The translations under genes and the position numbers were made by a program. Positions 1 through 24,780 of a DNA stretch of 64,000 nt are shown one piece after another (positions within the stretch are counted from its first letter, which is position 1; every line of letters begins with the position of its first letter). This DNA comes from a virus, in the IMG/VR virus record IMGVR_UViG_3300028920_000065, positions 12,922 to 76,921 of that record; one strand, given 5' to 3'. The notes beneath the pieces are model-generated. The model searched no databases and was not told where the DNA came from. It saw nothing but the letters and a program-made list of their open reading frames with translations.

Positions 1-932
1 AATTCTTTTTCTGTTGGTGTTCTTGTACTTTCATCAACACCAAAATTAAAATTTGGTTTTAAATAAAGGTCTTTTTTCTTGTTTCCATTAACACCTATAT
101 AATCAAGCTCATTGAATGAAATAGAAAGATTGAGAAATGGTAAACCAGATTCCATAGCTTTAAAATTTCCATCATTACCACCAAATTGCGTTGTTATATT
201 TGATATTCCACATCTCCTGTAAACAAGATATTTTTTATAGCTAGGAAATGATGAAAATTCAACCCTCCAATTAATTGGAGGAGTAATAACATAATCTCCA
301 TAAGCTCCAACTGATGTAATACGAAATACAGAAACTATTTGTGCCAATATTTCTTCCTCTTCTCTATTTCTTGGTTTCATGAATTCCCATGCAAGGTCAA
401 AATTTCTTCTTGCGTGACCTGCATAAGCAAGTTTATCATGAGGATTATCAATACCACCACCAAATGCTCCTGATTTCATTGCAAAAACAACTTCTTGAGG
501 TAAAATGGTCGATGCTATTCCAGAAAGTGCCTTATATCCTTTCCATTTTATATATTCACCCAAACCACCACCAAGATTCATTCCTTCAACCGATTGCCAC
601 TGACCTACTATTGTATCTGCGGTTGGTCTTATAGGAAGAATGATTGCATCTATTCCTTTTAATTTTATTTCTTTTATTTTTGTTTTGCCTCCTGCTTCTT
701 CTTCATCTAATTTTGCAACAGTATCATCTTTTAATTGCTCAGAAATTCCTGGAATAATAACTTTCGTTCCAATAGGATAAAGTGCTATAAAAGAAACATA
801 AGGAGTTTTTTCTTTAGCAAGCAATTCCTTACTTGCATTTATCATTTCTCTTAATTTAGTAGGAAAAACTAAAATTTTATCGTTTAATTTTAATTCTAAT
901 ATTTTCTTTTCTAATTCTTCTAATTTATCCAT
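1..932 (-). CDS. gp48: Baseplate tail-tube cap, T4 gp48-like (partial, runs off window start)
   Basis: Not in the ORF track. Translated by hand from ATG at 932 (MDKLEELEKK...). Contains NPHDKLAYAGHARRNFDLAWEFMKPRNREEE...PPINWRVEF, matching the gp48 NP..G..R.F...P.N..E pattern. Confidence 0.75.
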   Translation of the reverse strand, partial: MDKLEELEKKILELKLNDKILVFPTKLREMINASKELLAKEKTPYVSFIALYPIGTKVIIPGISEQLKDDTVAKLDEEEAGGKTKIKEIKLKGIDAIILPIRPTADTIVGQWQSVEGMNLGGGLGEYIKWKGYKALSGIASTILPQEVVFAMKSGAFGGGIDNPHDKLAYAGHARRNFDLAWEFMKPRNREEEEILAQIVSVFRITSVGAYGDYVITPPINWRVEFSSFPSYKKYLVYRRCGISNITTQFGGNDGNFKAMESGLPFLNLSISFNELDYIGVNGNKKKDLYLKPNFNFGVDESTRTPTEKE

Positions 933-1388
933 TTAATCACCATTTATTTCTCTTAAAATATCATTTATTCTTTTAATATCTATTTTCCTTTCAATGATAT
1001 AATTATCTTTTTCTTCTCTTTTTAATTTATATATTTTAATACTTTCATCACAATCAATATCCTGACCGTAGGAATAATACATTTCATCTGGATTTAATAT
1101 TTCTATTAATCCCCATCTTTCTAAAAGATTCGCAATTTCATTTCTTCTTTCAAGATCTCCTTTTACCCATTCAGGAAATTTTCCATCAATAAAAAATCCT
1201 TCCTTATAATGTATTAGAAACCATCTTGAAAAAACTTTTATTATATGACATGTTTGATATAATATTTTATTTTTATGATTTCCAATTCCAAGTCTTGACA
1301 GTGTTTCTGAAATAATTTTAATTTTGTGCTTTGGTTTAATTTCAATTAGATTGGTTGTATCTAGTTGACAATTCATAACATCATTCAT
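933..1388 (-). CDS. regA: Translational repressor RegA
   Basis: ETLSRLGIGNHKNKILYQTCHI...IHYKE...DG...RRNEIANLLERWGLIEI closely follows T4 RegA. Confidence 0.92.
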   Translation of the reverse strand: MNDVMNCQLDTTNLIEIKPKHKIKIISETLSRLGIGNHKNKILYQTCHIIKVFSRWFLIHYKEGFFIDGKFPEWVKGDLERRNEIANLLERWGLIEILNPDEMYYSYGQDIDCDESIKIYKLKREEKDNYIIERKIDIKRINDILREINGD

Positions 1389-1406
1389 AACATCCTCTTT
1401 TTTTAT

Positions 1407-1420
1407 TCAATATTATTTAT
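1407..1420 (-). promoter_or_regulatory. Late promoter (regA-gp48)
   Basis: ATAAATAATATTGA on the minus strand. Confidence 0.75.
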
Positions 1421-1465
1421 TATAGATAAAAAGAGAATTATTCGTATAATGTTTTTGCTATAGGC

Positions 1466-2374
1466 TTATTTAGAAGCCCAAACAATAAATCCCTGACCCC
1501 ATTCCTCCGAACATTGCCATCCTTCACCACAATTATTTAAATAAAATTTTTGTATCTTAACAACAATTTTTTCTAGTATCTCAGGTAATCCAGTAAATGG
1601 ATATATTTCAGAATAAGAAATGAGTGGAATTGGAAATATTCCAAAAGATCCTTTTTCTTTCCAATCAAAAGCATCCATTAATATTTTATATAAATCAGAA
1701 TCATAATCACTCCTGAAAAGTTTTTTTGAATCTGGTTTAAATTCTATATTTGAATCAATTATTTTTTTAAACAATGATAAAAAGAAATTCAGTGGTTTAA
1801 ACACACTCTGAACACTAACTTTTTTTGGAACAACATAATTAATAAAATGACCACCATTTTTTAAAATTCTATATTGCTCAGAAATTAACTTTGAAATATC
1901 ATCAGCATTTTCAAAATGTTCAAGCAATCCAACATTAAAACTAGAATCAAATGTATTATCTTCAAAAGGAAGATTCATTCCATCACCAACTACAAAATTT
2001 CCTTTAAATCCAAGTGAATTAAAATTTTCTTTGGCTACTTCTATGGCATTTTCTGATTGATCCAATAATGTACAATTCCACCCATGATATGCATGATATA
2101 AAGAAAGATTTCCTCTTCCACAACCAATTTCAATGCATTTTCCTTGTTTTTTGTTATAAAATAATTTATCAAATAGATCATAGTGTTTTTGAAAAACTAA
2201 TTGCATTTGTGTTTCTGGTTCTCCAGTTGTAAAATAATTATGCTTCTTTTCTTTTCTATCTTTCCAGTCTAGGTTGAAATATTCCTTTGATCCATCTTTC
2301 ATATTATTCTCCGTTTTATGAATAGAATCAGAATCTTTATATTTTCGATAAATACACGATCTAAAATTATACAT
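1466..2374 (-). CDS. Class I SAM-dependent methyltransferase (small-molecule/sugar type)
   Basis: Motif I IEIGCGRG, GDGMNLPFEDNTFD, GLLEHF, RILKNGG. Confidence 0.85.
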   Translation of the reverse strand: MYNFRSCIYRKYKDSDSIHKTENNMKDGSKEYFNLDWKDRKEKKHNYFTTGEPETQMQLVFQKHYDLFDKLFYNKKQGKCIEIGCGRGNLSLYHAYHGWNCTLLDQSENAIEVAKENFNSLGFKGNFVVGDGMNLPFEDNTFDSSFNVGLLEHFENADDISKLISEQYRILKNGGHFINYVVPKKVSVQSVFKPLNFFLSLFKKIIDSNIEFKPDSKKLFRSDYDSDLYKILMDAFDWKEKGSFGIFPIPLISYSEIYPFTGLPEILEKIVVKIQKFYLNNCGEGWQCSEEWGQGFIVWASK

Positions 2375-2707
2375 TATTTCATATGTCTCCTTATAATTGA
2401 TAATATTTTATACATCATCATCATCATCTATTTCATTTAATTCATCAACAATTTGGCAGTTTTCATATTCATCAAAAATTGTTTTTAGAGCACCATCTAA
2501 TTTTGATCCCTTAAATTCTTTCATTATTAATACTAATCTCTTATAATTATTCTTCTTCTTTTTTATTACATTTTTTATCTAAAACACTAAATCCTATCAT
2601 AACTGTAAAGAATAATAATATTTCCCCTGGTGTAATTAGATCAACATTATTTGCCGCAGAAACTAGTATAAGAGCAAAAAGAGCTATATTAGGTAATAAC
2701 ATCCTTT

Positions 2708-2947
2708 TCATAATAAACATTCCAAATCTTTTAAAATTTCTTCAGCTAATCTATATCTATTTTCTATATAATTATCAGTTTCAAAACTATTTTCTTTAAA
2801 ACCTTTTTTATATTTTTTATTTTCATAATTAATTATAATTGATCCTATACCTTTCATATCAAGATCAATTAAAACATTCTTATCTTTTAGCTTATCTTTT
2901 AAAATTTCCATTACTTTATAAGCTTCATAAATATTTTTTAAAATCAT
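2708..2947 (-). CDS. Hypothetical protein
   Basis: 79-aa ORF with GGAG RBS, downstream of a sigma70-like promoter at about 2971-2998. Confidence 0.6.
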   Translation of the reverse strand: MILKNIYEAYKVMEILKDKLKDKNVLIDLDMKGIGSIIINYENKKYKKGFKENSFETDNYIENRYRLAEEILKDLECLL

Positions 2948-3018
2948 ACAATTCTCCCTTAAAAAATTATATTATACTTAAAAATTCAAAAAACACAAGG
3001 TATTATTTTAAAAAAGTT

Positions 3019-3807
3019 TTATTCGTCTATTTCTATTTTACTATTATAGAACATGTACCATCTTCCATCATTTAATTCTGTATATTTTACTCTAATTGCT
3101 GATTTACTAATATCAACTATTTCTCCATAATCCCATCCACAATTATTTTCACATATAACTTTCATTCCAATTTTATATTTAGATTCCATTAATTCTGGAT
3201 TATTATGAATATTACCTATGACCTTTCCATTATTATTGATTATTAGATCCCTTAAGTCATAATATTCTTCATTTAATCCATCTCCATAAAAACTACATTC
3301 ATCAAATTTAACCAAAACATTTTCTTTTCGATATAATGTATCTCCATCATAAAAATCATCAAACGACATAATATCATTTTCATATACTTCAATTCCATTT
3401 ATCATCACTCCTTGCTCTATTTCTGATTTTCTTTCTAATATTCTTTCCAATCTAAATTGTAAATCATCAAATACAAAATAGAAAAAACTATCACCTTCCC
3501 ATATTCTAAAGTAATAATCTTTACCTCCTAAATTGACACTATTACCGCATTTATCTGTAGGTTCTTTAAAATCCTTCTCAAATGCATCTATAAATGTTTG
3601 TGCCAACTGATGAACTCCCTCTCCTTTCGGACACAATGAAACATCCTGCTCGTACATTTCGTAACATCTAAGATTTTTAGTGGAATTTATTCTTGAAAAA
3701 GGACAAAAATCACAATTCACAATTTCTGACTTAATTAACTTCCTGCATACTTCTATATGCTCCTTAGTTATATTTTTAAAATTCTCTCTCTTCCTTTCAT
3801 CTTTCAT
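3019..3807 (-). CDS. Mosaic protein containing a YopX-like domain
   Basis: FRIW...NGIEVYENDI...VIGNIHNNPEL is the YopX signature. Cys-rich N-terminal part and an extra C-terminal part. Confidence 0.7.
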   Translation of the reverse strand: MKDERKRENFKNITKEHIEVCRKLIKSEIVNCDFCPFSRINSTKNLRCYEMYEQDVSLCPKGEGVHQLAQTFIDAFEKDFKEPTDKCGNSVNLGGKDYYFRIWEGDSFFYFVFDDLQFRLERILERKSEIEQGVMINGIEVYENDIMSFDDFYDGDTLYRKENVLVKFDECSFYGDGLNEEYYDLRDLIINNNGKVIGNIHNNPELMESKYKIGMKVICENNCGWDYGEIVDISKSAIRVKYTELNDGRWYMFYNSKIEIDE

Positions 3808-3811
3808 TCAG

Positions 3812-4993
3812 TTACTCCATAAAAGTTTTTTGTAAATTTACACTTTCAATTTTTGCCAGAACATGAGCAATTTTTTTACCTGCATTTCCAATTCCAAAAG
3901 TGTCATTTGATATGCCTAGTTTATTTCTCATATGAGTTTCAACTAAATCAACAATCATATCTGAATTATAATCACTCCACAGGACATTACCACATCTCTC
4001 ACGCATTCTTTGCCTATTTCCAATATCAACTACAGGAACACCAAGAAAACTTCCTTCACGGATGCCTGATGAACTATTACCAACCAGACATTTGCAATTA
4101 TTAATCAATCTGGCATAATCCTCAGGAGAAATATTTTTAACGAACTGAATCTTGTCATTACTTTTATGTGTTTCCCTGAATATCCTAATTCTCTTTGATA
4201 TATCATCAGTACCTGCATCAATATTTGGCCATAACATGAAAGTCTGCATATTAAGTTTCTCAACAGCTTTCAGTGTCTCTTCAATCTGCTTTCCGGCATC
4301 CATATATTCTGTTGTTACCGGATGTTGCATAACGACAATGTATGGCTTATTTGGATCAAGAATTGCTCCTGCACCTCCTGCTCTTTTGAAAATATCTGCA
4401 TCTAATGATAAATCAATATCAACAAGTAAGTCCATTGCAGGACACCCAACATTAAAAACCATATCAGGATCTTCCCCCATTGTAATAACGCGTTGTTTCG
4501 ACTTTTCTGTTGCAGGGAAGTGAATATGTGCTAATTTTGTAATTGCATGGCGAACACTTTCATCAATTGATCCTGTAAGTTCACCACCTTGAGTATGAGC
4601 AAGTGGAATATTCATATATGTTGAAGCAATGGCGGTAGAAATAGTTTCAAAACGATCAGCAATTGTTAAAACAATATCAGGTTTGAGCATATTAAATATA
4701 GTAGGAAGCTCCATGAGTCCTATACCGGTCGATTTAGCCATAGTTAATGGTGAACTACCTTCAAGTATAAAATTCACCGTAGAATCGATTTTAAACCCAT
4801 CAGATTCGATTATTTTTCTAACATTACCATAACGCTCAAGAAGAGCAGATGCACCAACAATGAGTTGTAGTTCGAGCTTGGGATGTTCTTGAATAGCTCT
4901 CATTGCTGATTTGATTCTAGCATAATTTGCACGAGATGCGACTACTACACATATCTTTCTTACTTCTGGAAATTTAATTATTGATGTCATCAT
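3812..4993 (-). CDS. neuC: UDP-N-acetylglucosamine 2-epimerase, hydrolysing (NeuC/LegG type)
   Basis: RKICVVVASRANY, DRFET, AHTQGGELTGSIDESVRHAITKLAHIHF, VMQHPVTTE, WPNIDAG, LVGNSSSGIRE, DIGNRQ. Confidence 0.93.
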   Translation of the reverse strand: MMTSIIKFPEVRKICVVVASRANYARIKSAMRAIQEHPKLELQLIVGASALLERYGNVRKIIESDGFKIDSTVNFILEGSSPLTMAKSTGIGLMELPTIFNMLKPDIVLTIADRFETISTAIASTYMNIPLAHTQGGELTGSIDESVRHAITKLAHIHFPATEKSKQRVITMGEDPDMVFNVGCPAMDLLVDIDLSLDADIFKRAGGAGAILDPNKPYIVVMQHPVTTEYMDAGKQIEETLKAVEKLNMQTFMLWPNIDAGTDDISKRIRIFRETHKSNDKIQFVKNISPEDYARLINNCKCLVGNSSSGIREGSFLGVPVVDIGNRQRMRERCGNVLWSDYNSDMIVDLVETHMRNKLGISNDTFGIGNAGKKIAHVLAKIESVNLQKTFME

Positions 4994-5042
4994 TTACTCC
5001 ATATCTTATATTTTCTATTTTCTCCACTTTTTGTACATTGCA

Positions 5043-5342
5043 TCATTTAGCTTCTCTCTGTTTTCTAATTTTTTCTTGTTTTTTACATTTCTTCACTGCC
5101 GATCTCCACACAAAAAACGCTCTTATGAATGGAATGATAGGAAAGAATACAAAAAATCCAATCACACTCAACATAAGAAATAATGCCTCGGCTATCTCTG
5201 TTGCAAAAGATAAAAAATATTTAATCTCTATCCAATATCCTTCAAAATTCCAGAGTGTTCTCCAATATCCCAATTTGGCTTTGTTACTTGGACAATTTCT
5301 GATCTTGTCACCATCATATATTAGATCTTTATTTTTCATCAT
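5043..5342 (-). CDS. Hypothetical membrane protein
   Basis: Hydrophobic stretch ALFLMLSVIGFFVFFPIIPFIRAFFVW; AGGAG RBS. Confidence 0.65.
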   Translation of the reverse strand: MMKNKDLIYDGDKIRNCPSNKAKLGYWRTLWNFEGYWIEIKYFLSFATEIAEALFLMLSVIGFFVFFPIIPFIRAFFVWRSAVKKCKKQEKIRKQREAK

Positions 5343-5372
5343 TCTTCTCCTGTAATTTTAAAGCATTTCATG

Positions 5373-6197
5373 CTAGATCCTGAATCTGTTATCTCCCCAT
5401 CTTCCAACATATTTTTTCTTCACTTTCAATTCTTCTTCAGAAACAACTCTGGTTCCAGTACCATTCACCACTTCAACGAAATCCCTGTACTCACACAATT
5501 CTCGCAATTCCATAGGATCAATAGAAACTTTAACATCAGGTGTGGTCATTGTTTTATCTAGGATGAAATGTTTTTCAATCATTGAAATATTCTTACATAG
5601 AGCGACTTTAGCAACTTCAATTCCAAGGGAATGATCAGAGAAACCAATTTCATGATTCCACAATCCTTGCTCAAAATTCATATTATCAATCATAAATAAA
5701 TTTGAATTTTTTGGTTTAGTTGGATATTCAGAAATACAATGCATGATGGTATGCTTAACATCAAAATCTTCTAGGTTATTTAATAGATTAACTATATCTT
5801 CACTATCCATCATACCAGTGGATACTATAATATGTTCAAAATTTTCAGATAATTCCTCAAGCATTCCATAACTTTCATTATCTGTACTAGCAACTTTGAT
5901 ATATTCCATTCCAAGTGTTGAAAGAAATGGAATCAATCTTCTATCAAAACATGTTGTTAAAAACTCGACATTATTTTCTTTACAGCATTCAATTAGGTCA
6001 ATATGATCATTCTCAGATAGTTCTGTCTTCTTGTACCAATGTATGTCCCAACCATCGCCAACAAGATGATCTGCTTTGAAACTTTGAAACTTAACGAAAT
6101 CAGCACCACAACTTGCAGCAGTTTTAATCATTTCCTTTGCTATCTCCATATCTCCACAATGATTAGTACTACATTCAGCAATTATTTTAGTTCTCAT
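5373..6197 (-). CDS. neuB: N-acetylneuraminate/nonulosonate synthase (NeuB family), lacking the C-terminal SAF domain
   Basis: True start MRTKIIAECSTNHCGD at 6197 (GGAG RBS). GADFVKFQ, IKVAS, VSTGM, MHCISEYPT, IGFSDHSLG, IEKHF. Confidence 0.92.
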   Translation of the reverse strand: MRTKIIAECSTNHCGDMEIAKEMIKTAASCGADFVKFQSFKADHLVGDGWDIHWYKKTELSENDHIDLIECCKENNVEFLTTCFDRRLIPFLSTLGMEYIKVASTDNESYGMLEELSENFEHIIVSTGMMDSEDIVNLLNNLEDFDVKHTIMHCISEYPTKPKNSNLFMIDNMNFEQGLWNHEIGFSDHSLGIEVAKVALCKNISMIEKHFILDKTMTTPDVKVSIDPMELRELCEYRDFVEVVNGTGTRVVSEEELKVKKKYVGRWGDNRFRI

Positions 6198-7200
6198 ATG
6201 ATTTCTCCCAATATTTTTTAAACATTTCTTCAAATTCCTTTTTAAAATCATCATCATCATGATCAAGCTTACACAAAAATTCATGATTTAATTCTTCATT
6301 AGTTAATATATCAGTATCAACTAATTCTTCACACTGATTTATTATATCATTTTTATATGTCAATGTCAACTTCACAGGAGAATATTCTCCTAATTTTGTT
6401 TCAACCTTTACCCAAAATTCTTCATTACTAGAATTTATAAACACATCTGATATTGTATTATGGCATTTTTTTAACAATAAAAAATCTTTTTCATCATTAA
6501 TAATTATTTTTTCATAATACCGTTCTTTCATTTCAAAAGATTCAATTTTATTTGTTTCTGTATTAAGTAAATGGCAATATTTTTTTTCAAGTTCTCCTCT
6601 ATTTTTTTGATATAAGGAACCACAATAAAAAATATTATCTTTTTGCTGAGACATATGATAATGACCCGAAATAATTTTTTTATATTTCCAATAATCAGTT
6701 TTAAAGAGAGAATCTTTTTTTGAAATAGCTTGTCCATGTCTAAATCCAGAAAAATCAAAATGTCCAAAAAGATAATTTTTTTCGTTATTATGTTTGGATA
6801 TTTGTTTAGATATTCTAGGAGCATTCAATTCATTTATCCAAGGACAAAAAATTAAATTATCCTTAACATAAACATCATCAATAATTAATTTTCCTCCTTC
6901 AAACATAACTGGAAGAGAGGTTATTTTATTCGTATTTGTATAATAACAATCATGATTTCCAGCAATGACAATATATTCACACATTTGAGATATTTCTTTA
7001 TGAATTTTTTTAAATGTATCTATTATCATAAAATCACCAGCTAATCTTTTATCATATGTATCTCCACAGTTTACAACAAGATCAACATCCCTTTTTTTAA
7101 TAATTTCCTTTACATATTCCAATCCTTTTTTCTGATAATTAATAAAAGATTCAGATGAATTTGTTCCATGATGTAAATCTGAAATAATTAAAATTTTCAT
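6187..7200 (-). CDS. gp47: Recombination nuclease subunit, T4 gp47/SbcD/Mre11-like
   Basis: SDLHHG, GDTYD, GNHD, FGHF, SGHYH metallophosphoesterase motifs. Start MKIL at 7200 with GGAGGA RBS. Confidence 0.9.
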   Translation of the reverse strand: MKILIISDLHHGTNSSESFINYQKKGLEYVKEIIKKRDVDLVVNCGDTYDKRLAGDFMIIDTFKKIHKEISQMCEYIVIAGNHDCYYTNTNKITSLPVMFEGGKLIIDDVYVKDNLIFCPWINELNAPRISKQISKHNNEKNYLFGHFDFSGFRHGQAISKKDSLFKTDYWKYKKIISGHYHMSQQKDNIFYCGSLYQKNRGELEKKYCHLLNTETNKIESFEMKERYYEKIIINDEKDFLLLKKCHNTISDVFINSSNEEFWVKVETKLGEYSPVKLTLTYKNDIINQCEELVDTDILTNEELNHEFLCKLDHDDDDFKKEFEEMFKKYWEKSYEN

Positions 7201-7208
7201 TGATCCTC

Positions 7209-7637
7209 CTAATTCCATCTTTTTTTATTTGTATTATTTGTAATATTCCATTCTTCAACCTTCACAAATCCATTTGTTGCCCTTTGGATCTTTTTAGCAT
7301 TTTTTTCTGAAATTGTCAAAAAACATCTGGATCTATAATTAGTCAATGTCCCAAAGGCAATTTTAGATTTAATAGCGAGTTGTCTATAAGTTATTTTATT
7401 TTTAATCATATACCATTGTAATTTTTCAATGGCAGTATTTAATTCAATAATTGGTTCTTCAAGTCCATAATAAGATAAAATTTTTTCTTCATCTTCATCT
7501 GTTATTTTATATCGTTTAAATGCAGAAGATAAATAATATTCTCCAAAACCAAGAATTCTAGAAAAATTATTTAAGGAATAACATTCTTTCCAGCATTTAA
7601 ATTTTACAAATCTTCTTAAACTAGTTCTTATTTTCAT
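7209..7637 (-). CDS. Putative HTH DNA-binding protein
   Basis: ITYRQLAIKSKIAFGTLTNY Cro/XRE-like HTH; a second HTH-like segment lies N-terminally. Confidence 0.6.
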   Translation of the reverse strand: MKIRTSLRRFVKFKCWKECYSLNNFSRILGFGEYYLSSAFKRYKITDEDEEKILSYYGLEEPIIELNTAIEKLQWYMIKNKITYRQLAIKSKIAFGTLTNYRSRCFLTISEKNAKKIQRATNGFVKVEEWNITNNTNKKRWN

Positions 7638-7680
7638 TAAATCTCCATATCATAAACAATCTTTCCATTTTTTCATCATC

Positions 7681-7935
7681 TTATGCCTCCATAATATTTT
7701 TTATTAATAATGTAACAGCATCAATAGTTTCATTAAGAATTTCATTTTTCTCATCAAGTTGAATTGCATTTTCTTGTAAATTCTTAGCAACAGTAAACAA
7801 AAATGTTAAAATATCATTATTATTTTCAAATTTATCACAATATTCTAAAATATTTCTAAATTCAATATTATTAGAATATTGTGATAAATTTACATTTTTT
7901 CCTGATGATAAATTCCAATTAGAAGTTTTTAACAT
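7681..7935 (-). CDS. Hypothetical protein
   Basis: 84-aa ORF within the operon. Confidence 0.55.
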   Translation of the reverse strand: MLKTSNWNLSSGKNVNLSQYSNNIEFRNILEYCDKFENNNDILTFLFTVAKNLQENAIQLDEKNEILNETIDAVTLLIKNIMEA

Positions 7936-7944
7936 AATTTACCC

Positions 7945-9051
7945 CTATACTTTCAAAATTAATTTACTTTTTGCTCTTGTAATGGCAGTGTATAGCCATT
8001 TTCTTTTTTGTAAATTTGTTGAACCAATTGGTTCAACAATAACAACACAGTTTTCATATTCTGATCCTTGAGATGCATGTGTTGTAATGCAATAACCAAG
8101 GTCAAATTTATCATATTTTTTTAATCCCTTCAATTCTTTTCCAGTCTCCCAAAAATGACTATCAAATTTACATTCAAATTTATTATAAGTTATTTCTGGA
8201 TAAAAATCAAGTCCAGAATATCTTACAACAGTATTTCCAGCCATTCCTATTAATCCATTTGTTAAATATAATTCACCAACATTAGTAAAAACATATTTTT
8301 CCCAATTATTTTTCTTGCAAATTAATTTTTCTCCTTTTATTGGAAAATCTTTTTCTTTTCCTAATCTCATTAATGTATTATATTTCCTTCTTGTTTTATT
8401 ATATCCACAAATAACTTGATTTGCATTTTTAAATGTTTTTAAAGGAAGTTTATCTACAATCCAAACATTATTTCCATATCTACCAATATTTAATTTAGTT
8501 CCATTAAAAATAGCTTCTGATAATTCAATAATTGAACTTTCTTTTGCTTGTCTAAGTGGTTCATTCAATCTAATATCTGGATTTTCTAAAAGGAAATTAT
8601 TACCTTCTATGGGATCAAGCTGATTGTGATCTCCAATAAAAATAATTGGAATATTAAAAAATAATAAATCATCTATTAATTCCTCATTTAACATAGAGCA
8701 TTCATCAACAATAAAAAGTTTAAAAGATCGTAAATCTGATCTCATTTTCAATATTTTTTCAAAATTTCCTCTTTTATCTTCTCTAAAATTATAAATTTTT
8801 GAATGTATTGTTGAGGAATTTGGATGTCCTTTGGCAGCTAAAACCTGTGCAGCTTTTCCAGTATATGCCATAAAAGAAACAACTGATTCACTAATACCAA
8901 TTTCCTCTATGATATATTTAACCAACGTGCTTTTTCCACTTCCAGCACATCCAGAAAGAACAAAATATTTTTGCTCGTTCTTCTTATACCATTTTTTTAT
9001 CTTTTTTAAAACTGATTTTTGAGTTTCAGTTAATATTATTTTCATAAACAA
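7945..9051 (-). CDS. dda: SF1B DNA helicase (Dda/RecD-like)
   Basis: GCAGSGKS, AYTGKAA, TIHS, IVDECSM, IGDHNQLDP, RQA, GYCITTHASQGSEY, LYTAITRA. Confidence 0.9.
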   Translation of the reverse strand: MFMKIILTETQKSVLKKIKKWYKKNEQKYFVLSGCAGSGKSTLVKYIIEEIGISESVVSFMAYTGKAAQVLAAKGHPNSSTIHSKIYNFREDKRGNFEKILKMRSDLRSFKLFIVDECSMLNEELIDDLLFFNIPIIFIGDHNQLDPIEGNNFLLENPDIRLNEPLRQAKESSIIELSEAIFNGTKLNIGRYGNNVWIVDKLPLKTFKNANQVICGYNKTRRKYNTLMRLGKEKDFPIKGEKLICKKNNWEKYVFTNVGELYLTNGLIGMAGNTVVRYSGLDFYPEITYNKFECKFDSHFWETGKELKGLKKYDKFDLGYCITTHASQGSEYENCVVIVEPIGSTNLQKRKWLYTAITRAKSKLILKV

Positions 9052-9162
9052 TCTTCCATCTTATCAAAGTGTATTTTAACTCTAAATATATCATAATAAA
9101 ATAGATTTGTCAACACTTTTTTAAAAGATTTTAAAATTACTGTTTTTGATTTAAAATAAAAT

Positions 9163-9501
9163 TTAGATTTCTTCTGAATCATCTAAAGATGTATCTGCCA
9201 TATCATAATTTTCTGTTTTTCGAAAAAATTCATATTCCATTGTTAAGCGGGTTTTAATATCATCAATAATATCTGCTGTTTCTAATTCCTCATATGAAAG
9301 AACTGAATCTTCCTTTAAAAAAAATTTTTTTCTTTCACCATTAGGTTTTACTGAAAAAGTTACTGACCTAAATGGTTGGCAGATACAAACAATCCCACGG
9401 GGTGTTTTAACATCTACTATTCTACACACATCCTTAAATTTTTTTCCATCATATTCTCCAATAAAATCAATGTGCGTTTTTGTTATTCCAATAACAATCA
9501 T
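9163..9501 (-). CDS. Hypothetical protein
   Basis: ORF overlapping the upstream stop, with RBS. Confidence 0.6.
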   Translation of the reverse strand: MIVIGITKTHIDFIGEYDGKKFKDVCRIVDVKTPRGIVCICQPFRSVTFSVKPNGERKKFFLKEDSVLSYEELETADIIDDIKTRLTMEYEFFRKTENYDMADTSLDDSEEI

Positions 9502-10659: not shown

Positions 10660-13080
10660 TTAATTTACCTCTGTTATTGTATAATTACTAAATCCTAATT
10701 TTTTTTCCACTTCTATCAAAGTATCAGCAATTTCTATGATAGGTTCCCTATGTGAAATAATATTAACATAAGGAATATTTTCTTTTAAGGATGTCATGAC
10801 ATCTTTCAAAGCTTCTGGATCAAGATTGCTATCAAAAACTTCATCAAGAAATATTAAAGGAAAAATAATTCCATTTTTCTTTTTATATAATTCAATAAAA
10901 GTAAAAATATTTGCAAGATTAATTTGCTTTGATTCTCCATTAGAAAGATCCCAATAATCAATATCATTTCCTCTTTGAATAACATTTGCATCAAGACCTT
11001 TAGAATCAGAAAAAATGAGAGAAAAAGGAGATCTAAGTTTTTCAAGATATTTTTTTGAAAATAAATTCAATATATCAAGATATTTTTTAATAATATATTT
11101 TTTAATTCCTTTATCGGAAACAACATAAATCATTTTTTCAACAAGTTTTTTTTGCTTCTCTATTTGTTTTATTTTTTCCTTTGTTTCCTTTTGATATTCA
11201 AGATTCAATTCAAGTGCTTTTCTATTAATTTTTCTTTCTTTTATTCTTTTTAAAATATTTTTTTCTGTTTCTATTTCAGAAACAATCTTTCTAATTTCCT
11301 CATTCTTATTATTATTATATAAAATTTTTTCATTTATTTCTTCAATAGTTTTAGAATCAATATCAATTTTTTCTTTTAATTCATTTCGTTTTGTTTTTAA
11401 ATCAGCATATAATTCTAAATCAACTTCAACTTCTTTCATAGCTTGGAACTGGGATATTTTACTTGCAATTTCATTTTGTAAATTATATTGTTCCTCTTTT
11501 TCTTTTTTCTCTTTTTTTAAATTATCTTCTTTTCTAGAAAATTCTGCAATATTCAATTCAATCTCTTTATACCTTTCACTAAAATCAACATCATTAAAAT
11601 CTATTTCAGAAAGAAATGTTTCTTCACTTTTAATTTTTTCTTTTAATTTATCAATTTTATTAGTTAATTCTTTTAATTCTTTTAATTTATCAATTTCAAT
11701 TTGTTTGGTTTGCTGAAGTTGTTTTAAAGCAAATAGTATTTTTTTCTTTTTAGATTGTAAAATATTTATTTCTTCAAAAAGTTCTAAAATACGATCATTT
11801 TTAAATTCGTCTGTTAAAATACTTTTACATTCATTACAAATATCATTTGTTTTATAATATTCTATTTGTTTTTCATAATCTTCTATATTAATCTTAGCCG
11901 CATGTATTTTTCCAGATGTAATATTTATATCAATTTTTTCTATTTTATCCTCTGTATTTAATATTTGAGTTTCAATATCTGGATATTTTATTTGATTTAA
12001 TTTATCTAATTCATTTTTTAGCCCTTCAATTATTTTCTTTTTTTCTAAATATTTTTGATTGTCGGCTTTTATCTTTTCTTCACCACTTTTTATATTTTTA
12101 TAATTTCCTTTTAATTGCATCAATTGTATAAAAACATTTTGAATTTTTTCAGATAATTCTGATAATTCCTCGTATTTAACTTTTTTCCCAACATTTAACT
12201 GAAGATTTTCAATTTCTTTTCTAAGTTTTTCCGTTTGCTGTTTATTATCTTTATTTCTCCGAATAGTATTTTCAATTGTTGAAATTTGAGTTTCAACTTT
12301 TATTAAATCCTCTTTAAACTCTTTATATATTTTTTGTAGTTTATTATATTCAATCTCATTTATATTTTTTAAAGTTTTTTCAATTTCTTTCTTTTCATTC
12401 ACCAAATCATTTATTTTAGTGGAAAGATTTTTAATTTCTTCTTTCTTTTCATTTTCCTGCTCTTCAATGATTGCTCTATTAGATTGTTCTTGTGTTCTAA
12501 TGCTTTCATATTTTCCTTCTAAAGAAGATAACTTCATTGTGAGTATATTAAGTTCAGCCTTTGTCATATCTTTCATTTTATCATATCTTTCAAGTTCAAA
12601 AAGCCTCATTATAAAATCTTTTCTTTCTGTTGATTTCAATTCCATAAAAGGAGTATAAAATCTTTCAGATAAAAAATTAATATGATTGAGAACTTTTTTA
12701 TCAATATTAAAAAGATTTTCTATAATTTCATTTAAACCATTCTTTCCAGTAAATGCTAATTCCTCTCCATTTTTCTTAATATATTCTTTATCTGGTTTAA
12801 ATTTTCGACATAATTCATATTTATCATCATTTACAGAAAAAAACAATTTTAACATTACATTCTTTTTATTTTTTCTATTAGGTATATTTTTAATTGATTT
12901 TTTAGAATAAGTTTTTCCAAATAATAAAACATGAATTGCATCAAGAATTGTTGATTTACCAGAGCCAATATGTCCCCTATAAACATAAATTTTTTCAGGT
13001 TCAATTTTTATTTCAACACCTTTTTTTCCAATAGAAAGAAAATTCTTAACAATAAGTTTTTCTAATTTTACATTAGTCAC
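10660..13080 (-). CDS. gp46: Recombination ATPase subunit, T4 gp46/SbcC/Rad50-like
   Basis: KNFLSIG, Walker A GHIGSGKST, long coiled coil with CNEC zinc hook, LSNGE signature, FLDEVFD, ISH. Likely GTG start at 13080 (AAGGAG RBS). Confidence 0.92.
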   Translation of the reverse strand: MTNVKLEKLIVKNFLSIGKKGVEIKIEPEKIYVYRGHIGSGKSTILDAIHVLLFGKTYSKKSIKNIPNRKNKKNVMLKLFFSVNDDKYELCRKFKPDKEYIKKNGEELAFTGKNGLNEIIENLFNIDKKVLNHINFLSERFYTPFMELKSTERKDFIMRLFELERYDKMKDMTKAELNILTMKLSSLEGKYESIRTQEQSNRAIIEEQENEKKEEIKNLSTKINDLVNEKKEIEKTLKNINEIEYNKLQKIYKEFKEDLIKVETQISTIENTIRRNKDNKQQTEKLRKEIENLQLNVGKKVKYEELSELSEKIQNVFIQLMQLKGNYKNIKSGEEKIKADNQKYLEKKKIIEGLKNELDKLNQIKYPDIETQILNTEDKIEKIDINITSGKIHAAKINIEDYEKQIEYYKTNDICNECKSILTDEFKNDRILELFEEINILQSKKKKILFALKQLQQTKQIEIDKLKELKELTNKIDKLKEKIKSEETFLSEIDFNDVDFSERYKEIELNIAEFSRKEDNLKKEKKEKEEQYNLQNEIASKISQFQAMKEVEVDLELYADLKTKRNELKEKIDIDSKTIEEINEKILYNNNKNEEIRKIVSEIETEKNILKRIKERKINRKALELNLEYQKETKEKIKQIEKQKKLVEKMIYVVSDKGIKKYIIKKYLDILNLFSKKYLEKLRSPFSLIFSDSKGLDANVIQRGNDIDYWDLSNGESKQINLANIFTFIELYKKKNGIIFPLIFLDEVFDSNLDPEALKDVMTSLKENIPYVNIISHREPIIEIADTLIEVEKKLGFSNYTITEVN

Positions 13081-13109
13081 AATATTAATCTCCTTTATAT
13101 AACTAATAA

Positions 13110-13155
13110 TTTTATACACGTTTTTTTAAGAATGTAAAGAGTAAAATTAAAAAAA
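13110..13155 (-). promoter_or_regulatory. Sigma70-like promoter cassette for the gp46 operon
   Basis: Minus strand TTTACA-TTCTTAAAAAAACG-TGTATAAAAT; near-identical copies at 15516-15560 (-) and 28216-28245 (+). Confidence 0.75.
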
Positions 13156-13207: not shown

Positions 13208-14803
13208 TTACATCATGCCATTATTCATAGGCATTACATTTTCTTCTTCATCATAAATTACTGCTGTTTCCATAGTCAAAACAATTCCAGCCAAAGAAAC
13301 AGCATTCAAAAAAGCCGCCTTTGTAACCTTTGCTGGATCTATAATTCCAGCCTCATACATATTATCAACATAATCCATGGATATTACATCAAAACCATAT
13401 CCAATTTTTTCAAGATTATTTATTACAACATCAACACGTCCACCGGCATTTGCAACAATTTGTTTCATTGGAGAAAGAATTGCTTCTTTTATAATAGTTT
13501 CACCAATATTTTCAGCATTTAATTTTGTTGAAATTTTTGCAAGACAAGTTCCACCACCTTCAACAATTCCATCTAAAAGTGCTGCTTTTGTTGCATTTAA
13601 GGAATCTTCTACTCTATCTTTCTTTTCTTTCAATTCTATTTCTGTCATTGCTCCAATATAAAGAACACCAATTCCACCAGATAATCTACCAAGCCTTTTT
13701 TGAAGTCTTTCTTTTTCATGATCAGATGTAGTTTCTTTCATTGTTTTTTTAACAAGATCAATTCTCTTGCTAACATTTGATTTCAATCCAAGTCCACCAA
13801 CAAGAGTTGTTTGATCTTTTGTGACAATAACTTTTCTAACACCACCAAGATGATTTGTTCCAATTTTTTCAAGTGAAATTCCTTCATTTTTACCACAAAC
13901 AGTTGCTCCTGTATATGCAGCAATGTCTTGAAGGATATTTATCTTTTCTTGACCAATTTCTGGTGACTTTGTTGCACAAAATCTTATTTTACCTTGAAGT
14001 TTATTTTGAATTATAAAATGGAGAACAGAATCTTCAATTTCATTTGCTATCATGAAAACTGATTTATTAGTCTTATTTGCACTTGTCAAAACAGGAATGA
14101 GTGCTTCTGGTGAATTTACTGTACCATTATAAATTAAAACTATAGCATCCTCAAGAATTGCTTCATTTCTTTCAATATTGGTGACAAGATATTGAGATAT
14201 CCATCCCTTATCATATCCCATTCCCTCTTCAACTTTAGCAAATGTATTTGTATCAGGAGAATTTTCAATTGTAATTACTCCATCATCCCCTACCTTTTTA
14301 AGAGCATCAGATATAAGGCTTGCAATTTCTTCATCTCCATTGGCAGAAATTTTTGCAATCTGATAAATTTCTTCATCTGTTGTTATTTCTTTTTTTGATT
14401 TTTCAATTTCTTCAACAACAACTTTAGCAATTTTATCCATTTCTCTTTTTATTTGCATTGGATCATGACCTGCGGCAAGATATTTCATTCCTTCTTTAAT
14501 CATTGCTTGAACAAGAACAGTTGCAGTTGTAGTTCCATCACCTGCTTCATAATTTGTCTGATTTGCTGCTTCCTTAAGAAGCATCGAACCAGATTTCATT
14601 GCTGAATCTCTAAAATTAATTGATTTGGCAACAGTAACTCCATCCTTTGTAACATTTGGAAGTCCAAATTCTCTTTGTATCAATGCGGTCCTACCTCTTG
14701 CGCCAAGTGTTACCTTAACAGCATCAGCGGTTTTATTGAGCCCTTCAAGAATTTTTTCTCTTGCTTCATTTCCAAAAATTACATCATTTGTTTTATCATA
14801 CAT
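13208..14803 (-). CDS. groEL: Chaperonin GroEL (group I)
   Basis: VKVTLGARGR, TKDGVTVAK, AGDGTTTATVL, ISANGD, EKKDRVED, GIVEGGG, GIIDPAKV, Met/Gly C-terminal tail. Confidence 0.97.
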   Translation of the reverse strand: MYDKTNDVIFGNEAREKILEGLNKTADAVKVTLGARGRTALIQREFGLPNVTKDGVTVAKSINFRDSAMKSGSMLLKEAANQTNYEAGDGTTTATVLVQAMIKEGMKYLAAGHDPMQIKREMDKIAKVVVEEIEKSKKEITTDEEIYQIAKISANGDEEIASLISDALKKVGDDGVITIENSPDTNTFAKVEEGMGYDKGWISQYLVTNIERNEAILEDAIVLIYNGTVNSPEALIPVLTSANKTNKSVFMIANEIEDSVLHFIIQNKLQGKIRFCATKSPEIGQEKINILQDIAAYTGATVCGKNEGISLEKIGTNHLGGVRKVIVTKDQTTLVGGLGLKSNVSKRIDLVKKTMKETTSDHEKERLQKRLGRLSGGIGVLYIGAMTEIELKEKKDRVEDSLNATKAALLDGIVEGGGTCLAKISTKLNAENIGETIIKEAILSPMKQIVANAGGRVDVVINNLEKIGYGFDVISMDYVDNMYEAGIIDPAKVTKAAFLNAVSLAGIVLTMETAVIYDEEENVMPMNNGMM

Positions 14804-15597: not shown

Positions 15598-16959
15598 ATG
15601 CCATCATTCAATACATCAATTTATGGAATATGTGGAAGAAGAAGAGTTGCAAACCCAGAACTAAAAATATTAGTACTAACAAACAGTACAGATAGTATGC
15701 GACCACGACCAGAAAGTCAAATCATTTCAGACAGCAACAATATTTATTTTGTTTGTACGGATGAGGCAACAAAAAGTTTTATAATAAAATCTAATTTTGA
15801 TTTTTCTGTAATAACTGAAAAAGAACTAGATTTAGGAGGCACTACAAAAAGAACTTTAGAATCACCAGCTTGGGCAAAAACAGATAAAAGTGAAATAATT
15901 ATAGGTGGTGATGAAAACACTAACAATGCTGGTGGTTATCCAGCAGCAGATTACAATAAAGAAATTACACGAATTACAGCATCTACATTATCAGCAGTTT
16001 CAACATACCCTACTGGTCATAATCCAGCTGTTAGGACATCAGGTACATATAATAACTCCACAATATATAATCAATTATTAAATAGTTCTGGTGATTTAAT
16101 AATGGTCGGAAAAGGATATGCCCAAGGTAATAATTATTCGAGACATAATTCAAGTTTCGTTGAGCAAAGCTACAAATTTATTGATTATCCATATATTATT
16201 TCCGGTAGTGACATCACAGGCGATATTTTGTATATTGCTGGTCAACAGTACGTAACCAGAATAGATACGAGTACAGATACGATAGACGCAGCTTACGATT
16301 TTGTTAATGGCGCAATTACTTTTTATCTTAGACGTGTTATTTACGGATCAGATGGCGCCGTGTATGTCGCTGGTTATTATATATCAGGCGCAAGCGCAGC
16401 AAAAGGATGGATAGCAAAGCTATCGTCCGATCTAACGACAAAAACCTGGGAAAAAGATTTCAATATTACAGCGTCAAATTCAGATACTAGATTTTTTGGT
16501 ATTTGTGAGCATCAAGGGAAACTGTATGTGACTGGAAAATATACAGACCTGAGCAGCAATACATATGGTTTTGTGGCACGTGTAAATATGTCAACTGGGA
16601 ATTTCGAACAGTGCATTGGAATAACCGAAGTAACGAACTCATATATATTTAATAATATTATTGAATCCATTAATAATAATCTTTATGTTGGCGGATATTC
16701 CCGCCCCTATAACGCTGCAAGAAACGAGCCAACAGTAATAGGATTATTTAACCAGACAGATTTAACATGGTTAAACGGAAAGTCAACCTCAGGTAACGAA
16801 TACTCATTTGCAACTGAGGCTTTTACTCAGTCCGCACCAGGATCTACTTATGCCGCCAGTGGTGCAACAATATCAAATCCCTCGACTGGAACTTCTACAA
16901 AACAAGGTAAGGATCTTGGAAATTCAGGAACATTAACAGATACAGTTTATACGGAGTAA
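15598..16959 (+). CDS. Putative virion beta-propeller protein (receptor-binding/fibre-like)
   Basis: Late promoter at 15561. Repeated blade motifs (IYFVC, LYIAG, VYVAGY, LYVTG, LYVGG); Ser/Thr/Gly-rich. Confidence 0.55.
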   Translation: MPSFNTSIYGICGRRRVANPELKILVLTNSTDSMRPRPESQIISDSNNIYFVCTDEATKSFIIKSNFDFSVITEKELDLGGTTKRTLESPAWAKTDKSEIIIGGDENTNNAGGYPAADYNKEITRITASTLSAVSTYPTGHNPAVRTSGTYNNSTIYNQLLNSSGDLIMVGKGYAQGNNYSRHNSSFVEQSYKFIDYPYIISGSDITGDILYIAGQQYVTRIDTSTDTIDAAYDFVNGAITFYLRRVIYGSDGAVYVAGYYISGASAAKGWIAKLSSDLTTKTWEKDFNITASNSDTRFFGICEHQGKLYVTGKYTDLSSNTYGFVARVNMSTGNFEQCIGITEVTNSYIFNNIIESINNNLYVGGYSRPYNAARNEPTVIGLFNQTDLTWLNGKSTSGNEYSFATEAFTQSAPGSTYAASGATISNPSTGTSTKQGKDLGNSGTLTDTVYTE

Positions 16960-17358: not shown

Positions 17359-18048
17359 CTATCCAAATAACCATTCAGGTTCTTCAGAATACTTATTTTC
17401 TACCTCTTCATATACTTGTTCAATAATTTGTTCACCTTCCTCTTTTATTTCTTGCCAATTTATTGCCCTACCACCAAGTATTTCTGATGAAAATTTATTC
17501 AAATTTCTACCCCATTGTATAAGTGTATGACCAAGAACAAGTTTTTGGAATGTATGATTTTCATAAATTAATTCTGGATTGTCATATGTTTCATTTACAA
17601 ATACATCAAGATAAATTTTTGTTTGATCTTCTAAATTTTTTAGACTGAAAACATTAGTTGTTGGATTATAATTAAAATCAAAATAAAATCCTGTAGATAT
17701 TTGAAGTTGAGAAAAATAAGCATTTGAATAACTGTAAGATATAAGATCATCTGCAAAACTAACTTCTCTTTCATATACATATTTTCTTCTTGAAATTGGA
17801 AATCCAATAGATTCTGGATAATAACCTACTACATATAATATATTTGAATCCAATGTATATTCATAAGTATTTGCTGTAAGAGATAATTCATATATATCTG
17901 GTCTAGTTCCATCATCATGATTTTCTGCAAACCATTTTAATGCTCTTGGAACAATAATACTTTGAAATTGTGTTTCTGATACATTTATTCTTCTGTATTC
18001 TGAACCAGCCTCTTGAAAGATTAGTGTTTGTAATGCTGAAATATTCAT
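17359..18048 (-). CDS. gp13: Neck protein gp13-like
   Basis: INVSETQ...RALKWFAENHDDG...QWGRNLNKF...LGGRAINWQEIKEEG...PEWLFG. Start MNISAL at 18048 behind a late promoter. Confidence 0.85.
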   Translation of the reverse strand: MNISALQTLIFQEAGSEYRRINVSETQFQSIIVPRALKWFAENHDDGTRPDIYELSLTANTYEYTLDSNILYVVGYYPESIGFPISRRKYVYEREVSFADDLISYSYSNAYFSQLQISTGFYFDFNYNPTTNVFSLKNLEDQTKIYLDVFVNETYDNPELIYENHTFQKLVLGHTLIQWGRNLNKFSSEILGGRAINWQEIKEEGEQIIEQVYEEVENKYSEEPEWLFG

Positions 18049-18071
18049 ATCATTTTCTCCTTGTAATATTA

Positions 18072-18085
18072 TCAATATTATTTAT
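18072..18085 (-). promoter_or_regulatory. Late promoter (gp13)
   Basis: ATAAATAATATTGA on the minus strand. Confidence 0.8.
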
Positions 18086-18362
18086 TTAATGAAGGAGAAA
18101 AACTTGTTTTTCGACTGAATGGACTGAATGCTAATAATATATGATTCTATAAAAAAATCAAAATGCACACTTCTCCTTTTTACTTATCTTTTTTGAATAT
18201 ATATTTTTTTATATATTTTTTAAGATTCTTTTCAATTTTTTTTCTTTTTTTTTGATTAATTTTTTAATTGAAATTTAATCGACATAGTATTATCTTAATC
18301 AAAATTCTAAAACATAAATGAAATAAGTTTCTACAAGAGAAATTAGATAAAAAATTGAAAAA

Positions 18363-21034: not shown

Positions 21035-21463
21035 ATGTTATATTTTGATATAGATGGAGTAATAAGAAATTTACAAAAATCATTAAAAATTGATTTAGAA
21101 AATTGGAATGATTTTAATGAATTTCATTATGATAAAATAAAAAATGATCCAAAAAGGCATCTTGAAAATGCTCCATATTATGAAAATATGAGAAAGATCA
21201 TAAATTCTTATGATCAAAAATATTTTATTACATGCTCTTCTGAAAGATTTAAAGATTATACAGAAAATTTTCTTAAACGTATATTTAATAATTTTTTAGT
21301 TATATATGTTGAAAATCCAGAAAGCAAATTATCCTATCTTGGAAGTGATGATTATCTAGTTGATGATTATCCTTTTTATAGAGATAAGAGAGTTATTTTA
21401 GTTGAAAGAAAATATAATAAAGATTATGTCAAAAATTATGAAATAGTTTGGAGATTAAATTAA
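21035..21463 (+). CDS. HAD-family phosphatase (5'(3')-deoxyribonucleotidase-like)
   Basis: YFDIDGV motif I, FITC, K, LVDDYP, RKYN. Start MLYFD at 21035. Confidence 0.8.
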   Translation: MLYFDIDGVIRNLQKSLKIDLENWNDFNEFHYDKIKNDPKRHLENAPYYENMRKIINSYDQKYFITCSSERFKDYTENFLKRIFNNFLVIYVENPESKLSYLGSDDYLVDDYPFYRDKRVILVERKYNKDYVKNYEIVWRLN

Positions 21464-21474
21464 AAGGAGTTTAT

Positions 21475-22410: not shown

Positions 22411-22416
22411 GGTAAT

Positions 22417-23814: not shown

Positions 23815-24362
23815 AAATATATGCATTTATTGGAGTAGTGGGCTCAGGAAAAGATTTTTATACTAATCAAAAAATAACAGAATTAACTAAACTTGGTTAT
23901 AGATGTAAACATATGAATTTTGCTGATACTGTACGCAATGAGATTTGGCATATATTTGGGTTTAAACCTAAAGATGATGCTGAGTATGATCTTTTTAAAA
24001 AAACGTCCATAGAAGTTAATTTGAATCGTCACAATAATCCAATTATAACCGGAAGAGAATTTATGGAGAGATTTGGAACTGATTTTGTTAGAAAATACGA
24101 TAAAGAATTTTGGATTAAAGCATGGGCAAAAAAAGTAAAAGAAATAGAAAATGATTATGATGTTATTTTAATATCAGATTGTAGATATGATAATGAAGTA
24201 AAATATCTTTTAGAAAATTTTAATGCTACTTTTATGTATTGTAATTATATTTCTGATAGATATGAAATTAGAGAAACAAAACCAGAAAAATTTGCACAAA
24301 GATTTCTTAATTTAGATGATAAAACAGATATAACACAAAAATTGAAGGAGATTTTAATATGA
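23811..24362 (+). CDS. Deoxynucleoside monophosphate kinase (T4 gp1-like)
   Basis: GVVGSGKD, FAD..R, GREFMERFGTD, ISDCRYDNE. Confidence 0.85.
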   Translation: MKIYAFIGVVGSGKDFYTNQKITELTKLGYRCKHMNFADTVRNEIWHIFGFKPKDDAEYDLFKKTSIEVNLNRHNNPIITGREFMERFGTDFVRKYDKEFWIKAWAKKVKEIENDYDVILISDCRYDNEVKYLLENFNATFMYCNYISDRYEIRETKPEKFAQRFLNLDDKTDITQKLKEILI

Positions 24363-24748: not shown

Positions 24749-24780
24749 ATAAAATTAATGAATGTTTATAAGGAGAAGTT

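Follow-up and report, generated by a model that had tools for sequence, protein, structure and literature searches.

Organization of the neuB, neuC and Methyltransferase Locus

The 64,000-nt stretch of viral DNA analyzed here (the window) comprises bases 12922-76921 of a 76,921-bp IMG/VR contig (IMGVR_UViG_3300028920_000065) from a marine sediment metagenome. CheckV estimated the completeness of this contig at ~43%, so that ~57% of the phage genome is unsampled. Between two phage core genes, the minus strand of the window carries three genes whose predicted products could make a methylated sugar of the sialic acid type. These are neuB (5373-6197), encoding a 274-aa synthase of the NeuB family without the SAF domain (PF03102, 189 bits); neuC (3812-4993), encoding a 393-aa hydrolysing UDP-N-acetylglucosamine (UDP-GlcNAc) 2-epimerase (PF02350, 231.7 bits); and a gene for a class I S-adenosylmethionine (SAM) methyltransferase (1466-2374) of a family designated MT11 in this analysis, which was defined by full-length orthology and adjacency to NeuC and NeuB. 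The flanking core genes, on the same strand, encode a gp47-like Mre11/SbcD nuclease (6187-7218; PF00149, 43 bits) and a RegA-like translational repressor (933-1388; PF01818, 84.9 bits).

A preliminary description of this DNA had stated that the three genes share one strand, are interleaved with ordinary phage open reading frames (ORFs) and are coupled behind gp47, and each of these statements holds. The ATG of neuB (6197) overlaps the gp47 stop codon (6187-6189) by 11 nt, and GGAG-type ribosome-binding sites (RBS) precede neuB, neuC and the ORF between them. Translation of the methyltransferase is likely to start at the ATG at 2299 (277 aa), the position indicated by the alignment of orthologues together with a well-spaced GGAG 6 nt upstream. 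The ORF between neuB and neuC, ORF99 (5043-5342; 99 aa), has its own AGGAG RBS and encodes a hydrophobic stretch. A YopX-domain phage ORF (3019-3807; 262 aa; PF09643, E 9.4e-8; phrog_98) lies 4 nt downstream of neuC, and two orphan ORFs of 79 aa (2708-2947) and 57 aa (2547-2720) stand between it and the methyltransferase gene, all on the minus strand. None of the three orphans matched a Pfam or PHROG family, nor did they yield a tblastn match in the 107 related loci that were fetched and compared with the window proteins. The YopX ORF is absent from the bacterial cassettes described below and is probably outside the sugar pathway. Directly upstream of the methyltransferase gene there is also an ORF of ~38 aa with an acidic DDDDDV tail (2410-2524, minus strand), below the ORF-listing threshold.

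The base composition of the locus is uneven. The lower AT content of neuC, earlier noticed by eye, was borne out by counting: its GC content is 0.353, against 0.24-0.27 in the neighbouring genes and 27% in the whole window, and its GC at third codon positions (GC3) is 0.22, against 0.11-0.15 in the phage core genes. GC3 is also raised in neuB (0.24) and reaches its regional maximum in ORF99 (0.29); the methyltransferase gene, at 0.14, is at the phage background. The intact ORFs, the lowered GC3 of neuB and neuC (0.22-0.24) and the background-level GC3 of the methyltransferase gene fit a long residence in the phage under selection.

NeuC as a Predicted Hydrolysing UDP-GlcNAc 2-Epimerase

The assignment of NeuC as a hydrolysing enzyme, already made in the preliminary description, was confirmed as a prediction by profile comparison, since the protein scored 392.2 bits against the NeuC_NnaA equivalog model TIGR03568 (cut-off 235.9 bits) and 73.2 bits against the model of the non-hydrolysing WecB epimerases. 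In the PDB it is best matched by the human GNE epimerase domain (4ZHT; 243.6 bits, query residues 13-389), ahead of the Acinetobacter enzyme LegG (5XVS; 213 bits). The alignment with 4ZHT showed that NeuC and GNE have the active-site motifs DRF, H-x-GGE, RHAITK and HPVTT (QHPVT in the phage) in common, located in NeuC at residues 113, 136, 148 and 223. The closest homologues of the protein (P0122 and P0123) are 65% identical to it. Although the animal GNE is the best solved relative, it differs in carrying a fused N-acetylmannosamine (ManNAc) kinase, which the phage NeuC lacks, and the cassette has neither a kinase nor a phosphatase. The phosphorylated, animal-type sialate route, which has been proposed for Leptospira (PMC3438082), was set aside on this ground.

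A NeuB Subfamily without the SAF Domain

The phage NeuB is short. The Pfam scan detected no SAF domain (antifreeze-protein-like, or AFP-like, domain; PF08666), and the protein ends 25 residues past the barrel. It has been reported that ~30% of nonulosonic acid synthases lack SAF and that they cluster as whole branches in environmental bacteria (PMC8208679). In agreement with this, the database search returned at least dozens of proteins of 265-275 aa with PF03102 alone. In the alignment, these short NeuBs lack a loop of ~16 residues and the whole SAF domain, and they end in the motif [YF]xG[RK]WG[DN]N; this motif and a length of ~265-275 aa were used here to define the clade. The C-terminus of the phage protein, YVGRWGDNR, carries the motif of the clade. 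The phylogeny of NeuB, proposed earlier as a check, was built from 68 sequences; the short NeuBs formed one side of a branch with an SH-aLRT support of 99, with the phage protein nested inside. Within it, the phage NeuB belonged to a subclade of ten sequences (SH-aLRT 95) that includes two bacterial loci discussed below (L029 and L030) and its closest relative, P0002 (63% identity). The many homologues of similar length, their own branch in the tree, and the conserved barrel and tail all argue that the short NeuB is a natural subfamily and not a truncated or broken gene. In six loci (L036, L048, L051, L065, L074 and L010), a short SAF-less NeuB stands beside one to three long NeuBs, and the organisms concerned probably make more than one nonulosonate.

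The barrel residues that bind the metal, phosphoenolpyruvate (PEP) and the sugar in the Neisseria meningitidis enzyme are all present in the phage protein, with the changes Glu134 to Asp and Asn184 to Ser. The corresponding pairs (N. meningitidis/phage) are E25/E8, K53/K36, Q55/Q38, K129/K101, S132/S104, E134/D106, S154/S126, Y186/Y158, H215/H189, E234/E208, H236/H210 and D247/D221, and the two metal-binding histidines of the TIM barrel are thus kept. The AlphaFold2 model of the protein (pLDDT 91.4) was closest to PDB entry 6NCS (TM-score 0.90/0.86, root-mean-square deviation 1.8 A), followed by meningococcal NeuB and Campylobacter jejuni PseI, with TM-scores to NeuB structures of 0.85-0.90. 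Entry 6NCS is the solved structure of a 290-residue SAF-less NeuB from Leptospira borgpetersenii and is also the best match by sequence (117 bits). The two proteins are in the same length class and have the same fold, but they are only 28% identical in the structural alignment, which ends before the tail, so that a GRWGDN tail is not demonstrated in 6NCS. Arg266, within the terminal motif of the phage protein, is a candidate for a residue that might compensate for the missing AFP-like domain.

The Methyltransferase and the Probable Bacterial Origin of the Trio

The third protein is, as previously described, a class I SAM methyltransferase (PF08241, 74.5 bits; cut-off 21.2), with the SAM motif EIGCGRG; in the alignment of orthologues, ExGCGRG is invariant. 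It aligns end to end with the bacterial orthologues, including a C-terminal extension of ~120 aa, and scored 362.7 bits against a hidden Markov model (HMM) built for the MT11 family. NCBIfam contains no equivalog for this methyltransferase or for the dehydrogenase of the bacterial cassette.

Evidence that the three genes belong together came from two contigs of metagenome-assembled genomes, L029 (uncultured bacterium) and L030 (Spirochaetales), in which neuB, neuC and the methyltransferase gene stand in direct tandem. The phage proteins are 48-49% (NeuB), 64-66% (NeuC) and 55-56% (methyltransferase) identical to those of L029 and L030, the highest values among the fetched loci for all three, and in the methyltransferase tree these two sequences were also the nearest, with path lengths of 0.93-1.02 against at least 1.86 for all others. 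Since L029 and L030 carry the tandem trio and, among the fetched loci, are the nearest relatives of each gene, the simplest reading is that the phage trio is a single bacterial cassette captured en bloc, and that phage ORFs were then inserted between its genes. In the bacterial cassettes neuB and neuC are directly adjacent, while in the phage ORF99 intervenes.

The same genes recur in a wider bacterial setting. When the neighbours of short NeuBs were clustered over 52 loci, the partners were NeuC (45 loci), a CTP_transf_3 cytidylyltransferase (38), a D-2-hydroxyacid dehydrogenase (2HADH; 21), an SDR enzyme (20), a putative transferase resembling TagF (16) and a Methyltransf_23 enzyme (15). An independent metagenome scan seeded with the methyltransferase alone returned 80 loci, many of them on short contigs, in which NeuC and CTP_transf_3 were each adjacent in 57, 2HADH in 55 and NeuB in 41. 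The NeuBs of these loci comprised 33 of the long SAF type and at least three of the short type. As the long and short NeuBs occupy the same slot of the cassette, it can be argued that they perform the same chemistry. The wider cassette can be written as NeuB-NeuC-MT11-(deacetylase)-CTP_transf_3-2HADH, often with a TagF/BFO_1060-like transferase, the polysaccharide deacetylase being present only sometimes; it is widespread in environmental bacteria (L116-L195; for example L125:4754-9545 and L120:4798-10462), and we found no literature describing it. Its dehydrogenase has phosphoglycerate dehydrogenase as best NCBIfam match (235 bits, against a cut-off of 454), its cytidylyltransferase is PseF-like but below the cut-off, and its TagF-like protein weakly matches the model of the Tannerella BFO_1060 glycosyltransferase.

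The phage trio corresponds to the first three genes of the wider cassette in the same order; it differs in the phage ORFs between the genes and, like L029 and L030, it lacks the linked cytidylyltransferase and dehydrogenase. Neither L029 nor L030 has a cytidylyltransferase next to the trio, but the genomes of L029, L030 and L031 encode one of the cassette type elsewhere (217-250 bits on the cluster HMM). With the cytidylyltransferase unlinked in the nearest relatives, the trio would be a separable module, and a phage with the trio alone could use activation and transfer provided by the host. The trio of L029 is ~1.4 kb from fliS and fliD, a single locus that hints at flagellar glycosylation in this bacterium. 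Islands for the modification of flagellin or surface proteins with nonulosonates offer a parallel in this respect, but the phage has no Maf (PF01973) or other transferase gene on the contig. The preliminary idea that the trio forms one set pointing to a methylated nine-carbon sugar was thus strengthened, both by the tandem in two metagenome-assembled genomes and by the occurrence of the methyltransferase family, in most metagenome loci, beside NeuC, NeuB and a cytidine monophosphate (CMP) transferase.

Nonulosonate Modules in Other Phages

In nine IMG/VR contigs whose portals are of the P22 type (L002-L009 and L011), genes were found for 2HADH, Methyltransf_23, a short NeuB, NeuC and CTP_transf_3 (for example L004:5843-11136). 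In most of these contigs the module stands between a conserved gene of ~500 aa and the portal gene, directly upstream of the latter. They resemble the window in carrying a SAF-less NeuB with NeuC, but their set is fuller, with a 2HADH, a CTP_transf_3 and a different methyltransferase. Their NeuBs formed a separate clade (SH-aLRT 100), so that their capture was independent of that in the window. The scan of IMG/VR with the MT11 methyltransferase gave only partial matches to generic methyltransferases and no full-length orthologue, so that no other IMG/VR contig with the exact trio was found. The earlier judgement that this is uncommon cargo therefore stands for the exact trio and not for the theme, as other phages carry short-NeuB modules. 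No literature on phage neuB/neuC cassettes was found. From these comparisons, what appears to be new here is the recognition of the trio as one bacterial cassette and the wider cassette without a literature description; phage nonulosonate genes as such are not new.

Putative Early Expression

A putative sigma-70-type promoter with a 12/12 match to the consensus hexamers (TTGACA, 17 nt, TG-n-TATAAT, with an extended -10) was located at 6341-6369 on the minus strand. It is inside the 3' end of gp47, ~145 nt upstream of neuB, and no better site occurs in 800-9300. Another sigma-70 promoter, again near-perfect (9085-9113, minus strand; 11/12, extended -10), is directly upstream of a Dda-like helicase gene, and the two sites suggest that early promoters of the host type recur along this block of genes. 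The T4-type late promoter motif TATAAATA was not found in 1-9300, which is weak evidence as the motif is not enriched window-wide, and several copies stand directly before structural genes further on. Given the presence of the sigma-70 consensus and the absence of the late motif, the neuB operon would be transcribed early by the host polymerase. Such early expression would fit an alteration of the cell, or the supply of a precursor, better than strict co-regulation with the virion genes.

Proposed Pathway and Alternative Explanations

The reading that we prefer, with a probability of roughly 0.6, is that an early phage operon makes a methylated sugar of the N-acetylneuraminic acid (Neu5Ac) type from UDP-GlcNAc, in a pathway completed by enzymes encoded elsewhere. 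A phage operon, probably early, would carry the three-gene cassette captured from bacteria. NeuC would hydrolyse and epimerise host UDP-GlcNAc to ManNAc, and the SAF-less NeuB would condense ManNAc with PEP to a nonulosonic acid of the Neu5Ac type. The cassette methyltransferase would transfer a methyl group from SAM onto the sugar, before or after condensation or activation, and CMP-activation and transfer would be provided by host enzymes or by phage genes in the unsampled ~57%. In this way, the phage would contribute the committed early steps of a surface-sugar pathway of the host type. A known parallel is the bacterial NeuC-NeuB-NeuA pathway (SiaA/SiaC/SiaB in N. meningitidis, and also in Escherichia coli K1 and C. 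jejuni), with the same type of NeuC, the same NeuB barrel residues and the same gene adjacency; the phage differs from it in a NeuB without the AFP-like/SAF domain, in the lack of NeuA on the fragment and in the addition of a dedicated methyltransferase.

Several observations weigh against this pathway. The earlier description of NeuB as intact was right in that the gene is real and its barrel complete, but the protein is not canonical: it scored 214.7 bits against the equivalog model TIGR03569, below the cut-off of 399.65 bits, and covers only positions 2-274 of the 329 of the model. It also lacks Phe288 and Arg314 of the AFP-like domain, residues which that domain contributes to the active site of the partner and without which N. 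meningitidis NeuB is reportedly unable to catalyse the reaction (PMC11339185); entries 4IPI and 4IPJ are the R314A/K structures of that enzyme. No literature was found on the biochemistry or activity of a SAF-less NeuB, 6NCS included. The substrate of the methyltransferase is proposed from synteny, and the 2HADH present in most bacterial cassettes is missing from the phage, for which reason phage and bacteria may make different products. Moreover, the search beyond the window for NeuA, legionaminate, glycosyltransferase and Maf genes, suggested earlier as a check, returned none, and the absence of NeuA and transferase first noted for the window extends to the whole 76.9-kb contig (~43% of the genome). 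There is no PF02348, NTP_transf_3, GT2, GT4, Maf or Glyphos-type gene on it, the sole GT4 signal being a weak match inside NeuC itself. HMMs built from the bacterial partners (cytidylyltransferase, 2HADH, TagF-like, SDR, deacetylase and others) matched the trio and nothing else on the contig. Pfam revealed no transferase among 50 further proteins, nor did PHROGs among the ten of these that had remained unmatched, in scans not aimed by name at GT42, GT52, GT80 or GT38; the Atlas likewise pointed to no transferase for two large orphan ORFs. As seen on the contig, the pathway ends in a free sugar, and none of the targets first proposed (virion, DNA or host surface) was supported.

Whether the product would be of the Neu5Ac or the legionaminate type, both of which had been left open in the preliminary description, depends on the first substrate. 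For a legionaminic-type or other di-N-acyl nonulosonate, NeuC would act like LegG on host-made UDP- or GDP-2,4-diacetamido-bacillosamine and the short NeuB like LegI. The models TIGR03568 and TIGR03569 do not separate Neu from Leg enzymes, some homologues are named legionaminate synthase or diNAcBac epimerase in the databases, the match of NeuC to LegG is strong, and an SDR gene and an aminotransferase-like gene occur near some bacterial loci. However, NeuC scores higher against the UDP-GlcNAc-specific GNE, no LegB/C/H-like gene was detected on the phage contig, and the dehydratase/aminotransferase pair is missing from the viral modules L002-L009 and from most of the methyltransferase-seeded loci. 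As most cassettes are also without the complete dehydratase, aminotransferase and acetyltransferase set, a Neu5Ac-type product via ManNAc is favoured, and the legionaminic type is considered unlikely. It also seems improbable that the trio is passenger or decaying cargo which, unactivated, contributes nothing to infection. The incomplete pathway, the position of the cassette in a variable region between core genes and the orphan ORFs inserted between its genes would be expected of such cargo, but the three ORFs are full-length and undisrupted, with conserved catalytic and SAM motifs, an RBS for each gene, a consensus promoter for neuB and a codon composition largely ameliorated to the 27% GC genome. 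Furthermore, short stretches identical to the window are present in a second marine-sediment study (the contig comparison behind this match, with 80% likeness, is mostly AT-rich noise and was used only for the occurrence of identical stretches).

Two further explanations concern the purpose of the operon. Enzymes of the NeuC family hydrolyse UDP-GlcNAc irreversibly, and an early drain of host UDP-GlcNAc and PEP could sabotage peptidoglycan, lipopolysaccharide or capsule synthesis, with the methylated sugar as a dead-end sink that could conceivably resist the host sialate lyase. The early-looking promoter and the failure to find activation or transfer genes on the contig are compatible with such a role, which we nevertheless regard as very unlikely: NeuC by itself would suffice for such a drain, but the phage has retained all three genes in the order found in bacteria, where they serve glycan synthesis, and no precedent was found in the literature searched. 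T4-like phages glycosylate their DNA, and the window contains both a DNA methylase gene and what is left of a 7-deazaguanine pathway, so that the sugar could in principle be a hypermodification of the phage DNA. The scans of the contig detected neither a DNA glycosyltransferase gene nor one of the hydroxymethylase type, and the bacterial cassette, with its CMP-transferase, glycosyltransferase-like and (in L029) flagellar genes, points instead to surface glycans, which leaves a DNA modification as the least credible of the explanations.

Returning to the proposed Neu5Ac-type pathway, its boldest form, which we consider a long shot, is that a chemically undescribed methylated sialic acid is put on the phage particle, or on the flagella or surface of the host where it would block superinfection, with the cytidylyltransferase and the transferase coming from the unsampled half of the genome or from the host. 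If so, this would be a T4-like virus with a self-made coat of the sialic acid type from an uncharacterised enzyme set. Cell-surface recognition is governed by sugars of this kind, and a phage producing them could mask receptors or cloak its particles. The comparison also links the phage to a widespread bacterial gene set of NeuB, GNE-like NeuC, methyltransferase, dehydrogenase and cytidylyltransferase, of which the phage trio would be a minimal three-enzyme version, tractable for the identification of the sugar. In addition, the trio offers a test of a NeuB working without the antifreeze-like domain of the meningococcal enzyme.

Phage Genome Context

The virus is, judging from its gene content, a T4-like phage, and a very divergent one. 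Genes for a family B DNA polymerase and for RNase H lie upstream, and the other T4-like genes include, besides regA and the gp47-like nuclease gene, those for UvsY, gp32, the clamp loader, the T4 portal, the prohead protease and a neck protein. The DNA polymerase is only ~30% identical to cyanomyovirus polymerases. Nothing in the phage collection matched a 9-kb megablast query, tblastn of NeuC and NeuB against the same collection gave only distant matches (30% or less), and single-sequence scans of IMG/VR with NeuC, NeuB and gp47 had no match, indicating that there is no close relative in either database.

Other features of the window were recorded. A phage GroEL-type chaperonin gene (13208-14803, minus strand; PF00118, 176 bits) is located between a large unannotated ORF of 819 aa (10660-13119) and uvsY. 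An orphan ORF of 453 aa (15598-16959, plus strand) has no Pfam or PHROG match; its Atlas grouping is with SBBP/PQQ-like beta-propellers, its nearest Atlas cluster is viral (feature score 0.93; structure TM ~0.7), and it is not transferase-like. Two orphan ORFs of 238 aa and 719 aa without family match occupy 17359-20522 (minus strand); the Atlas model of the larger one (18363-20522) is of low confidence (pLDDT 0.50), its neighbours are unnamed viral clusters, and it is likewise not transferase-like. The stretch 21448-25249 (plus strand) encodes a DNA N6/N4 methylase, an SNF2-type helicase, a dNMP kinase, a QueD/PTPS protein and a QueC-like ORF of 144 aa, whose match to QueC is confined to the C-terminal half (profile positions 102-209 of 210). 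A TnsA-like endonuclease ORF (32532-33065) and a NUMOD3-motif ORF (48191-48823), both on the plus strand among core genes, are probably mobile endonucleases. Finally, downstream of the ORF at 37622-39025, the stretch 39295-42091 (plus strand) encodes RNA ligase 2, a peptidase of the trypsin type and another calcineurin-like phosphoesterase, the second of the window.

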